A DNA stretch of 61,092 bases, the filler included, from Dugesia japonica (taxonomy: Eukaryota): assembly GCA_001938525.1 (NCBI GenBank). It is 4 parts of 4 records of this genome, joined end to end, with 100 filler letters (N's around TTAATTAATTAA, not from the genome) between each part and the next. Parts side by side here need not be neighbours in the genome. Positions count along the whole stretch, not along the records: positions 1 to 20,707 come from MQRL01557940.1; 3 more parts are not named here. One strand, written 5' to 3'. Every line of letters begins with the position of its first letter. The stretch's first letter is position 1. This document shows, piece by piece, positions 13,186 to 18,844 of this stretch. The notes under the pieces are model-generated. The model was not told where the DNA came from, made no database searches, and saw nothing but the letters and a program-made list of their open reading frames with translations. Position numbers and translations under genes: made by a program.

Positions 13186-13372
13186 TGTTGGGGTCCCACC
13201 TGAGTTGGGTCACAATGAAAAGTGGCTGGGAAAAACAGCCCTCAAGGGAACCCTTTCAAGAATTTACCCTACCGTCCCTGTGGTAGATTTTCAGTTTATG
13301 GCGGTTGACCTTACTCTTAATGGAAGGTGCTCACCGATAAACCTTTAATTTCGGGTTCTATATTTTTCCCTA
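13186..13372 (-). ncRNA. Conserved structured RNA element at the 3' end of the element (copy 1)
   Basis: Multi-hairpin region conserved with 46597-46782 and showing compensatory substitutions. A G-U pair works only on the minus strand. Confidence 0.65.
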
Positions 13373-13434
13373 TGATTAACCAAAAAAAAATAAACTACAA
13401 CGCTGATTAAATATTTTATTAAAAGTAAACATTT

Positions 13435-13817
13435 TTAGAGCAGATCCAATGCTCCCGGATCTAGCCACTGGTCAGGGGACGTTACTACAAAATTGAATGC
13501 AGCGATATCATCATCTTCGTCCCACTGCATATTATTAGGGTTGCCAATCTGCTTTGACAAGTCCGCAATATATTGTTTTAGGAATTCAATTTTTCGCTGT
13601 AGTAATTGCTTATTCTCAGCTTCCAAGGCCTTTGTCTGGATGGCAAGGTCATTTTGCTTCTTTACTATAGCGTCCAATCTTTTAAGTAGCTTATCTCGTT
13701 GGTCTAAATGTCGTAAGAGGGCCTCGTTGGTTTTTCGTTTCAGGTGCCTCTCTACCAGCAGACGGCGCAGTATACGGTGACATCTACGGAGATTGTTTGG
13801 GAATCGGATACGAGTCA
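13435..13817 (-). CDS. Element ORF D, 127 aa: Arg-rich N-terminus, coiled coil, acidic/aromatic C-terminus; start codon inferred to be completed by splicing (A|TG)
   Basis: Preceded by gctaatttgttttag|TG and followed by AATAAA. Ungapped same-length homologue at 46829-47211. Confidence 0.8.
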
Positions 13818-13950
13818 CTAAAACAAATTAGCATTAATTTAGTAAAATTTTCTCAATGGAAAAGAATATACAATTACTGAAAATAACAAAAGAAAATTCA
13901 AGAGACAGTTCAAGCTATAAAATTTATTAACAAAAGAGGTGGTCTCCCAG

Positions 13951-14309
13951 TTAACTCTTAGGGGTTTGGGTGCTTTTCTCCACCATTAGAGGTTCTAGGG
14001 GCATAGATGTCTTCAACTTCAGAACATCACTTACCAGTTTATTCTCTCGGTCTTGGTAGGACCGGATCATCTCGACCAAAGACTCTACCTGGCCCTTCCA
14101 TACCCTCTCTTGTGCATGGGAGGCCTCAACTTCCTTCCTAAAAGCCACGCATTTTTTTCGATAGCGGCTTACTTTGCTATTGGCGTTAGCTGTATCCGCC
14201 TCCCACTTACGCTTGGCCAGACGATACAGATCCCATGCCATTTCGTGGTCCTCGCTGTCGTCGCGCATCTTTTTCGTAGGAACCGGATTGCGATTTAAAG
14301 ATGAGTGCA
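13951..14309 (-). CDS. Element ORF C, 119 aa coiled-coil protein with C-terminal KSTQT (LC8-type motif); start codon inferred to be completed by splicing
   Basis: Preceded by acttttag|TG, with AATAAA shortly after the stop. Ungapped same-length homologue at 47337-47695. Confidence 0.8.
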
Positions 14310-14608
14310 CTAAAAGTTATATATTAAATTGGAGTAAGATTTAGAATTTTATGCATCCAGAGCAAAATATATATGTATAACTTTTCCTTTTAATTAGTTT
14401 AGTGAAATATCTAAATTTGGTCCGCTTTTATAAAAGAAGAGCTATAAAATTTTAATTACGATTCATGTTACAAGGAAAAATAATGGACAAACATGTGTTC
14501 TAAATTGAAAAATTTATAAAACACACTGACAGTTTAGTTAGTCAAGGAGTGGGGTCTGTGTTTTCTAAAGCGCCACCACTGGCCCGATTCCGCAGATCCC
14601 ATAGGGTA

Positions 14609-15108: not shown

Positions 15109-15291
15109 TTATTCTTCATCGAGATCCACCTTAAGTTCTAGGGGGAACATCTCAACGAAACACTGAAGATCAGTTTCGTCAGGATAATCCACGACCCCGT
15201 GCGAAAGAATATGCATTAATAATTGTCTATTTCGTGCTTTACCCCTTTCAAATTGAATTAGGGTGAGCATCTCGGTTAACTGATCGGCCAT
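15109..15291 (-). CDS. Element ORF A, 60 aa, with PDETDLxCFVEMFP motif
   Basis: Acceptor ttttatag| at 15305. Homologous to 48375-48581. Confidence 0.75.
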   Translation of the reverse strand: MADQLTEMLTLIQFERGKARNRQLLMHILSHGVVDYPDETDLQCFVEMFPLELKVDLDEE

Positions 15292-16731
15292 GATTCCGGT
15301 TTACCTATAAAACAAAATAAAATATTTGCTTCATTTTATCCATGGAACTTGGGAAAGGAAAACGGTGGGCAATCCTCATAAACATGTGCCTGAAATTGAA
15401 TTCTCTAGATTATTTCATTTAGTTATTTTGCAGAACTACGACATCTGTTTAACTGATGCCTTTCTATTTAACAAAAGATATATGTAGGCGGATCGGAATC
15501 TGCGAGAATGCTGCATTATTCCATTTAATTCTTTAAATCAAAATTTGAATTAATTCATATCGGGCCTAGAATAATCAAGGTCATTTAAATAGGGCAAACA
15601 CTGGAAATTTATCATTATTTGTAAAATAAGATGCATATTTTTTATTTCAAAATCGGAATTATTTGTGTTGTTATTAGTGATAACCCAAGGTCGACTAGCT
15701 GAGAGCTAAATTTATATCTCGCTCTATTCTCACTCATGAAGTCAGAATGTTGTAGGTGTGTTCGGTACACAGAACAATCTAGTTATCGTGAACGTGTGTA
15801 TGATCACTGTCAGACTTATGTGGAATGAGATTACACGCTAACTAAGTTGGATGTATTGATTTGATTGAATAATATAACGAGTGTCCCTGTAAGTTATATA
15901 CAATTGTTGCTGCTATGTTAGATTGGTTGGCACTAGGCTGAATGATAATCATAACATCATCGTGAATACTCAGTGCAGATATGTGGTAGAACCTCTACCA
16001 GTTAACATTTGCAACAAATTTTATGATAAGAAAAATGAGAGATATATAATAAACTATTCCTTGACTCGTGACAGTTCTATGCATATCAGACAAAATGAAG
16101 ATAATAGCAGCTGGTAGTTAAATGAAATGATTAAAGTGCTCTCACGCACACCCAGCTCATATACAATAGCAGGCATATTTTGTCTGGTATATTATCTACA
16201 TTTGTTAATTGTATGGCTATGAGAAATTTTCTAATAGTATGCACTGAGAAATTTCAATGAGATTCTAGTGGTTATTCTTTTGGAATTTACTTTATGTCTG
16301 ATATTTCCGTGGATGTGTGTATTTTTACTTCAGAAAGAGTGAGTTATATTATTTAAAATACATTTTATATCTGATTTTTATCTTAATTTCTTATCATACA
16401 ATTTGACATTACTAAAGACAGTCAAGGCATCAAATCAACTGGTCATATAATTCAAATGTGGTTTTCTACTAAATTTAGCAATATACGAAATGATGACTCG
16501 ATTTTACGATGTTCTGCTTTATTTTGATAAAAACATGCTTCATACTTAACAATCATTTTAACTTTAAGCGAGTACAAAAAAAATATGCAGGATTTAATTG
16601 TTGTCATTGACTAATTGTAACTGAAACAAAAAAAATCATTTCAAACTTTACGAATTAAATTTTATTAAGATAACATCATCATAATTATAGTAAATTCTAC
16701 TATTAATCACTCAAGAAAATTAAAATTTTAC

Positions 16732-17055
16732 TTTGTATTAAAGGAGTTCTGCAATCGTAGATATCGAAAATTTGTCACTGTCAATGGTTATGTAACTTCT
16801 TTTCTTTATCTTAGGCTGGAACTAATTTTTTCGGTTTGATAATTCTATAGCGATCTTTTTCAATAACAAGGAATCAATTGAATCTTCTAAATGAATTTGT
16901 GTAAATATGAAAAACCTTTCGTTTTCAGCTAGATACCTGATGCAATAAGACTGGTTATCGTGAGATATATGATTTCGTTTCCTCAAAACTTGAATTTTCT
17001 TACAATATGTCGCTAGTTTAGCAGAGTTCAAAAAATGGTGATTATTTTTTATATA
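16732..17055 (-). other. Putative non-coding leader exon of the element, ending TACAAA|GTAAAA
   Basis: Lies directly downstream of the TATA box. The same TACAAA|GTAA donor is in copy 2 (49751) and an A|GTAAC donor in copy 3 (51230). The start position is inferred. Confidence 0.5.
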
Positions 17056-17078
17056 TCTGTTGTTAAAGTTAGGGGTCC

Positions 17079-17280
17079 TTTTATAAGATTTGTCTTACAC
17101 CCCAACTAGGCCCAGATTTGCTGATATTTTTAGATCAGCTTTTTTTTGCTTTCATTGGTTCTGTTGCTGATCTTCTAAAATTTTCTATGGTTTTNGGTGC
17201 TGCTATTGGCAGCTATTTTTATCAGACCACCTGATTTTTTGGTCTTTGTTTTATTTTTAATTTCAGGTAGCTGATTGGTT
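17079..17280 (-). promoter_or_regulatory. Pol II promoter of the element: 3 CCAAT boxes, GGGGTG box, TATAAAA
   Basis: Minus-strand CCAAT at 17274-78, 17205-09 and 17154-58; GGGGTG at ~17100; TATAAAAGG at 17085-17077. Conserved in copy 2 (TATAAAA 50006-50000). Confidence 0.7.
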
Positions 17281-18844
17281 CGATCTTCGAAACCCTGTAG
17301 TACCTTTCCGGATGATAGTATTTTTTTCTTTTTTGTAATCTCCATTGCACCAGATTGTTCTTCCTTCATTTTTTCTTACCCCGACTCTTTCCGACTTCTT
17401 GAGGCAAAGTTATCCGGATAAAATAGATTTTCCGTTAATTTTGTTTCTTTTTTATTTTAAAATTAATTAATTTTTTTTGTTAATTAATTATTTTTCATTC
17501 TACCTTTTCTTGGTGTTTCTTATTAATTTATTAATTTTTCTTAATTCTTACCCGTAAGTAGCTTTCATTTTACTTGGTTCCTCATTTTCATTTTTGATTT
17601 TACTTCGTTTCCTTCCCATATTGATTTCGAACTTTATTTTTCGGTGATCATTATTATCTGTTAATTTTTTAGTTCATTTTCCTTTAGCGGGTGTTTCACC
17701 CCAACAAAATATAAAAATAATAAAACTATTATATTATATTTTATCTTAAATACTGGGATTTCTATACTTACTATTGTAACTTATTTATTATATATAAGTA
17801 AGAGATACTAGTGCATTGGAACAGTACACATTCAATAAAACCCTATTCACTGACGTAACTTACTACTGAGATAACCTGAAATTGGATGTTTTAATCAATT
17901 ATATAATGGCATCATCAGAAATTTCATTCTCCAATTAATTTTCTTATGTAATTTTAAAAGTATTTCTCAAATTTAAGGCGGTAAAATTTCATGTTTTTAG
18001 ATGGTTAAATTTTTTTCTGTTTTTAGTTGTCAAAAATTTTTCACAGCTGAAGCACCAATATTTTTAAGGCTTTTCTACGATATTATTTTCTAAGCTTTTT
18101 AATTGGCAAAAAAATTTTGAGATTTTTCAATGTAATTCTAGTGTAAAAGTTTTTGTTTAAAAAATATGAAAATTTTTTAAATCAGATTTTTACAGGAATT
18201 TGGGTGAACAACCCAAATGTCATCCTTACATGAAATAATCATGTCTATTAGATAAAGAATTTTCCGATGGTTATAGTTAACAATCGTTATACTTTATCCT
18301 TCTTGAAATAAATGAGGTCTTAAGGTGAAAAATTCAAATTTCAGATTTTAGCGCACAAAGCTCTGTGCCGATAAAGCGTATGGACTCATATTTGGTTTTA
18401 TTTAAATCAGGAGGAAAAATTAACTGTATACAATCGGGAAAAAAGCTTCCTAACGAAGACATTAACCTGTCCTCCGGATTTTGGGACTTCTTCGAAAAAA
18501 TGATGCATGTCAAAATTTATAAAAATTGACACCATTCTATAAAGACATTTACGGTAAGAAAAACATCGGCTAATATCGTCAAACCTTATAGATAAAATTT
18601 TACATAGAAAAACATGTACTTACTTTGAGTCTCATCTGAGGAACTAATGAATTTTAGAAAAAGTAAATCAAATTTTTAACAGCAAACAAACTATTTGGTT
18701 ACAGGGTACAAACTATGAGATGTCTATACACACTCTTGGCTGTAAAAATTACTCTTCGTCTTAGTATAATTAATGAAATCAGTATATTGTTTGCATTCTA
18801 AGTAAAATTATTTTCAAACATTGTTTCAATAACAGTTTTGATTG

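Follow-up and report, generated by a model that had tools for sequence, protein, structure and literature searches.

We analyzed a stretch of 61,092 nucleotides from Dugesia japonica (assembly GCA_001938525.1; hereafter the window) and found that positions 13186–17706 are a real, dispersed mobile insertion of the integrase type. The unit (copy 1) is 4521 bp long and lies on the minus strand, running from a promoter end at 17706 to a structured end at 13186, and it carries four open reading frames (ORFs A–D) that, as judged from codon comparisons with a second copy (copy 2), are under purifying selection. The reading that we favor, with a probability of roughly 0.7, is that the unit is a solo long terminal repeat (LTR) from a giant Gypsy element resembling Burro, in which an array of spliced accessory genes would lie downstream of the promoter. 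The window consists of four scaffolds split by three linkers of the form N44-TTAATTAATTAA-N44, and copy 1 is therefore on a different piece from copy 2 and from a third, partial copy (copy 3).

Ends of the Unit and Its Target Site

Copy 1 has TG..CA termini. It begins with TGTTGGGGT at 13186 and finishes at 17706 with the complement of TGTTGGGGT, so that the ends form a 9 bp terminal inverted repeat (TIR; 13186–13194 and 17698–17706) in which 9/9 positions match, the agreement falling to 12/20 and then to 20/40 over longer intervals. AAAT is present on both flanks (13182–13185 and 17707–17710), consistent with a 4 bp target site duplication (TSD) at the site G-AAAT-A in the one copy in which a TSD can be tested; by several measures, the chance of any 4-base match at these positions is 0.9%–2.7%. 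Both the TG..CA ends and the perfect AAAT repeat had been claimed in a preliminary description of this DNA, and both were borne out. TGTTG..CA ends with a short inverted repeat conform to the TGTNR pattern, which is the terminal pattern of Gypsy LTRs (PMC2836005). Neither a primer-binding site (PBS) nor a polypurine tract (PPT) stands beside any of the four visible ends in either polarity, and no direct repeat was found between the first and last kb of copy 1, both of which are expected of solo LTRs. TRIM and LARD elements carry their own pair of terminal direct repeats, and these classes were rejected because copy 1 has no such pair. At the promoter-end terminus, copies 1 (17691–17703) and 3 (50415–50427) have a small hairpin, GGGTG-AAA-CAC(C/T)C. 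A 23/27 match to the same terminus of copy 1 at 11692–11718 (minus strand) is probably due to chance; its extension is no better than that of shuffled sequences.

The end features also bear on the possibility that the unit is a free-standing, nonautonomous element that never had two LTRs and is mobilized in trans by an integrase-like enzyme, either as a Ginger-like element or as a Gypsy satellite. TG..CA ends and a 4 bp TSD are shared with Ginger1 and Ginger2 (PMC2836005), and TG..CA ends are shared with GingerRoot (PMC6839031); the absence of a PBS or PPT at all four ends, and the presence of a promoter and genes within the unit, would also be in keeping with an element of this kind. However, Ginger1 elements have TIRs of 40–270 bp and a CCGG/CCGT TSD, and Ginger2 elements have TIRs of ~50–180 bp and insert within RTATAY (PMC2836005), whereas the unit has 9 bp and G-AAAT-A. 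GingerRoot and Polinton elements have a 6 bp TSD and long TIRs (PMC6839031), and they were rejected for the same two features. Moreover, the ends of the unit are otherwise unrelated and polar, as in an LTR, and scaffolds assembled from short reads would probably favor solo copies in any case. We consider trans mobilization unlikely, and we are equally doubtful of its most explicit form, a self-standing satellite of one repeat, belonging to no parent element, that would combine a promoter of its own with four spliced genes of regulatory function and a structured end of the RNA, would have split into many diverging lineages, and would borrow a Gypsy-type integrase. Of the two options put forward in the preliminary description, the giant solo LTR fits and the Ginger-type satellite fails on its TIR and target site features. 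What makes the solo LTR fit is the combination of a short inverted repeat, a 4 bp AT-rich TSD, and a polar layout from promoter to structured end.

Related Copies and Abundance of the Family

Copy 2 (46597–50411, minus strand, with a 178-N gap) belongs to a diverged lineage. It is collinear with copy 1 and lies on a separate scaffold, as had been described, but it is incomplete: it keeps the structured end, and ~220 nt of the promoter end are absent. At that point copy 3 (50412–51453, plus strand, with a 152-N gap) starts in inverted orientation. Copy 3, whose existence as a third partial copy had also been described correctly, represents a third lineage, comprises the promoter end only, and runs off the scaffold. 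The simplest and likely reading is that copy 3 is nested in copy 2; the other possibility is a misjoin. Copies 1 and 2 are ~66% identical and their synonymous sites are near-saturated, which on sequence comparison identifies them as two old, separate lineages rather than recent duplicates. Near-saturation at synonymous sites implies long separate propagation under selection and hence that the genes are part of the replicating unit.

We examined 4 of the 24 listed sequencing runs over 13112–17420, an interval that ends short of the promoter-end terminus. In two runs, 4924 and 6399 contigs matched the unit, filling 30/30 bins. Some of the matching contig pieces, 213–313 nt in length, had 0–1 differences, and the organism sequenced in the runs is therefore the same or a very close one. 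Summed contig depth, which does not equal copy number, was 70,000–159,000 at the structured end, 2,300–4,500 over ORF A, and 38–161 over 15416–16999, an order that agrees with the conservation profile along the unit. No loose contig end was seen at 13186 among the 20 matches listed of 904. A scan of viral and metagenome contigs with ORF A found no relative, and six loci from a motif scan were rejected as relatives because all six matched the motif alone. We conclude that the unit is one of an ancient and abundant family of insertions of the integrase type that carry genes; the abundance had been anticipated from the three copies in the window.

These data make it extremely improbable that the unit is an ordinary host gene cluster that was duplicated with its surroundings and acquired the appearance of ends and a TSD by chance. 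A single TSD has a 1%–3% chance of arising in this way, and a promoter and selected ORFs would suit host genes too. Nevertheless, similarity ends at the TG in each copy, the flanks are unrelated, the ends are common to three lineages, and thousands of contigs match.

Four ORFs under Purifying Selection

All four ORFs lie on the minus strand, separated by intergenic gaps of 130–230 nt, and their GC content is 0.42–0.49, versus 0.24–0.28 in the spacers and 0.27 (27%) in the window outside the copies. In copy 1, ORF A (126 codons) occupies 13435–13817, ORF B (118 codons, with a heptad pattern) 13951–14309, ORF C (108 codons) 14609–14952, and ORF D (60 codons) 15109–15304; their counterparts in copy 2 are at 47211–46829, 47695–47337, 48243–47935, and 48581–48375, respectively. 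The codon alignments of copies 1 and 2 were made via the proteins, which biases the proportion of nonsynonymous differences (pN) downward relative to that of synonymous differences (pS), and gave pN 0.19 and pS 0.82 for ORF A (126 codons; Fisher p 9e-26; 69% amino acid identity), pN 0.25 and pS 0.67 for ORF B (117 codons; dN/dS 0.18; Fisher p 3e-11; 62% identity), pN 0.36 and pS 0.70 for the first 68 codons of ORF C (dN/dS 0.24; p 8e-5; 46% identity), and pN 0.35 and pS 0.77 for ORF D (60 codons; Fisher p 7e-6; 50% identity). The alignment of the DNA has zero gap columns in ORF A, the 5′ part of ORF C, and ORF D, and the motif PDETDLxCFVEMFP in ORF D is common to both copies. The likeness of ORF C to its copy 2 counterpart stops after approximately codon 66; a frameshift in copy 1 was considered and rejected, as tblastn in the other frames gave no clear match to the C-terminal part. 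The preliminary description had presented four GC-rich, same-strand ORFs: their composition, strand, and selection were confirmed, but ORFs A and B are not free-standing and resemble 3′ exons.

Searches with the encoded proteins revealed neither a relative nor a known family or fold. Those for relatives of A, B, and a 373-amino-acid ORF elsewhere in the window (described below) covered proteins of near length only, and found no relative of A among seven candidates and none of B, for which there was one candidate. The lone profile match of A in 1.84 billion proteins, a repeat-rich DUF7507 protein, was rejected because its score was the sum of 18 weak stretches. Pfam gave sub-threshold coiled-coil matches alone for the proteins of the unit, a sequence search of the PDB gave nothing under E 0.05, Foldseek searches with the A and D models gave no match under E 5, the Atlas returned neither a named family for B nor a match that could be used for D, and none of six window proteins was present in an exact-sequence collection. 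A bZIP identity for A or B was rejected, as there was no Pfam bZIP match; Atlas bZIP clusters for B, at 0.86–0.87, remain at the level of a lead. In structural models computed from two sequences, ORF A is predicted to form a single helix of 84 residues (residues 8–91; mean pLDDT 78), and its protein begins with a basic segment and ends in a conserved, acidic tail. ORF D is modeled, with low confidence, as three helices. No membrane segment was found in A–D (maximum hydropathy 0.79). A tentative suggestion is that the four proteins are soluble regulators, in which case A might be a basic, coiled-coil, transactivator-like protein with an acidic tail and B a coiled-coil partner.

Acceptor-like Sites ahead of the ORFs

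A T-rich YAG site resembling a splice acceptor precedes each ORF in both copies; six of the eight were flagged by rule, and those of copy 1 ORF C and copy 2 ORF B were identified from the alignment. ORFs C and D each contain an ATG of their own (14935 and 15291), with acceptor-like sites at 14952 (read by eye) and 15304, respectively. In ORFs A and B, the reading frame opens AG|TG in 4/4 cases across the two copies and in the same phase. Across the window, 15 of 213 TTYYAG sites are followed by TG, which puts the chance of two independent cases, reckoned post hoc, at ~0.5%. Identity across the A and B acceptors is 19–20/45 before the site and 28/45 after it. ORF A of copy 1 has a stop codon just upstream and its first in-frame ATG at codon 96, and ORF B of copy 2 has no in-frame ATG until near its end; an ATG upstream of copy 2 ORF A, in AT-rich DNA, and another at codon 14 of copy 1 ORF B are not conserved. 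As A and B lack a conserved ATG and start at AG|TG, an upstream exon is likely to be needed for both, and it may complete the start codon. There is a precedent in the env gene of insect endogenous retroviruses in the springer subclade, whose main exon is spliced from an AU dinucleotide such that the start codon is made at the junction (PMC12992720). That env is one 3′-end exon joined as AU|G, whereas the joint predicted here is A|UG, for two exons inside the repeat.

Same-strand genes separated by 130–230 nt, each with an acceptor-like site before it, could alternatively indicate that the LTR is as we propose but that its genes constitute a four-gene operon, which spliced-leader trans-splicing would resolve. 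Flatworm operons, which are defined by gaps of ≤300 bp, are resolved in this way (PMC12582326), and C and D, with their own ATG codons, would be compatible with such processing. However, flatworm leaders end in ATG (PMC12582326), and at the three of the four A and B sites for which it was computed, the frame set by a leader ATG stays open for 0, 4, and 15 codons. A spliced leader therefore cannot start A or B, and we regard an operon of this type as very unlikely. Under the solo LTR reading, the acceptors would instead serve alternative splicing of one RNA.

The Promoter End and the Structured End

The promoter end (17056–17706, minus strand), which may correspond to U3, contains a TATA box at 17085 and, upstream of it, three CCAAT boxes near 17279, 17210, and 17159. 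The TATA box is 621 nt inside the end of copy 1, in agreement with the CCAAT/TATA promoter ~620 bp inside one end that had been described. Copy 2 has all three CCAAT boxes and the TATA box (50006), copy 3 keeps those that are visible around its gap, and the distance from the first CCAAT box to the TATA box is 194, 195, and ~194 nt in the three copies. Among 129 TATA-like sites in the window, two have three upstream CCAAT boxes, and these are the sites in copies 1 and 2. By sequence, then, promoter motifs of the RNA polymerase II (Pol II) type are conserved at one end. In copies 1 and 2, GTTGGGGTG is repeated ~20 nt ahead of the TATA box. The region between the promoter and ORF D (15305–17055, minus strand), a variable leader or intron of 1.75 kb, has the lowest contig depth and no conserved ORF, and tblastx against copy 2 gave no match.

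At the opposite end, a conserved region of ~195 nt (13186–13380, minus strand), which we infer to be U5-like, stands out by its conservation, joint fold, and contig coverage, the deepest in the unit. Copies 1 and 2 are 73% identical here over 193 columns versus 45%–50% in the spacers. Folds of the single sequences are weak (z −0.32 and −1.79); the joint fold of the two copies, at z −6.4, is better than 300/300 column shuffles, and shuffles are also exceeded by two hairpins (~13293–13343 and ~13268–13287) that contain five compensatory pairs. The structured RNA that had been proposed at the far end is thus upheld by the two-copy joint fold, although its strand is ambiguous. Rfam gave no match anywhere in the unit. 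As a candidate polyadenylation signal, which would define where R ends, copies 1 and 2 share ATTAAA at 13344–13349; no RNA end was seen in the RNA runs described below.

The ambiguity of strand leads to a further reading, in which the unit is a solo LTR of reverse polarity: the structured end would be U3, the genomic RNA would be the plus strand, and A–D would be antisense genes transcribed from an antisense promoter. An arrangement of this type is known from human T-cell leukemia virus type 1, in which HBZ is an antisense gene with an antisense promoter. Reverse polarity is compatible with hairpins that fold on both strands and does away with a long R plus U5, but no plus-strand TATA box with two or more CCAAT boxes is present inside any copy, and in an apparently stranded RNA run the very few structured-end reads, which come from other lineages, are compatible with minus-strand RNA. 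We judge reverse polarity to be improbable.

A Probable Solo LTR with a Gene Array and the Evidence against It

If the unit is a solo LTR of the polarity that we favor, a full element would have been inserted by integrase at AAAT and would then have been reduced to a single repeat when its two LTRs recombined. Transcription by Pol II would start near 17055, and a donor within the variable leader would be joined to one of the four acceptors. ORFs C and D would be translated from their own ATG codons, and A and B would be framed by the upstream exon, most simply one that ends in A and thereby creates A|TG. The structured end of ~200 nt would act as a U5 signal beside the primer-binding site, and ~3.9 kb of the unit would fall in R plus U5.

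A number of observations weigh against this model. The R plus U5 implied here, 3.9 kb, far exceeds retroviral length. No end of the unit has been seen to adjoin a PBS, a PPT, or gag-pol, none lies near the Gypsy pieces of the window (described below), and the TSD could be tested in one of three copies, copy 1. The hairpins of the structured end fold about equally well on the opposite strand (plus-strand z −4.9 to −5.5), and an AATAAA that follows ORF A at 13420 is not conserved in copy 2. No splice donor stands out, A|GTAA at 16731, 49750, and 51386 being at chance level in AT-rich DNA, and the statistic for TG after acceptor-like sites is post hoc. In approximately a quarter of two oligo-dT RNA runs, 84 and 11 reads fell on the unit, all of them as partial alignments; depth was <1 over ORFs B and D, and no read covered ORF A or C or a splice joint. 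The lineage of copy 1 was thus not seen to be expressed in these runs, and a run index gave no RNA run among the listed holders of the unit. Lastly, no homologue backs any function for the A–D proteins.

Comparison with Known Elements

Giant Gypsy elements of planarians have multi-kb LTRs and accessory ORFs (PMC6431247). Compared by description, the unit resembles Burro and GYPSM1 in its implied multi-kb LTRs (internal regions of ≤25 kb in elements of >30 kb), accessory ORFs, thousands of copies, and probably type of host; the extra domains of those elements belong to the polyprotein or to an internal ORF located upstream, and the available part of the article describes no LTR genes (PMC6431247). 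The plant elements Ogre and Retrosat2 are likewise comparable in having LTRs of 2–6.5 kb (3.2 kb in Retrosat2), ~10 bp inverted repeats, many solo LTRs, and extra ORFs of undefined function, but these ORFs, such as ORF0 of Retrosat2, lie upstream of gag-pol, and no array in the LTR appears in the portions available (PMC6431247, PMC3485330). The sORF1 and sORF2 genes of the Drosophila MDG1 group are small, selected accessory ORFs that follow the LTR promoter and precede gag; they are two in number and outside the LTR, sORF2 has a membrane segment, and they showed no splicing (PMC11952523), whereas the unit has four ORFs within the repeat, acceptor-like sites, and no membrane segment. The sag gene of mouse mammary tumor virus (MMTV) is a protein gene within an LTR and is kept in solo LTRs, but it is a single gene located in U3, upstream of the promoter (PMC12548423); the four genes of the unit lie downstream of the promoter motifs. 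We found no account of a four-gene array inside an LTR in the literature covered, including the available portions of PMC8532177, PMC11410931, PMC13238120, and PMC13465017, which contain nothing on LTR genes; the primary Burro papers and Repbase, which were outside this scope, may annotate it, and the label of apparently undescribed in the preliminary description is thus unproven.

LTRs are usually treated as noncoding, and the exceptions, MMTV sag among them, involve single genes. If our reading is correct, a promoter together with four genes that are under selection and probably spliced would give every solo LTR the potential to act as an expression unit, in a genome that contains such LTRs in very large numbers, and ~3.9 kb of R plus U5 would have to be copied ahead of the first strand transfer. 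Burro1 has been reported to aid the survival of planarian stem cells (cited in PMC13465017), and LTR-borne proteins would constitute a second route by which such elements could act on the host. In annotation, the genes of the unit would be lost to repeat masking.

Other Features of the Window

An intact, single-exon ORF of 373 amino acids lies at 6923–8044 (plus strand); it has no Pfam match above threshold and no relative among 1319 candidates of near length. A 300-amino-acid ORF at 29086–29988 (minus strand) contains hydrophobic stretches and appears receptor-like by eye, and it has no Pfam match. The window also contains further dispersed repeats, along with a tandem array (796–1486, 10743–10918, 18150–18697; 31619–32565), that are unrelated to the unit. 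Decayed pieces of Gypsy reverse transcriptase and RNase H are present at 36717–36965 and 55906–56214 (minus strand), and an isolated fragment of eukaryotic 18S rRNA is present at 39050–39149 (minus strand).

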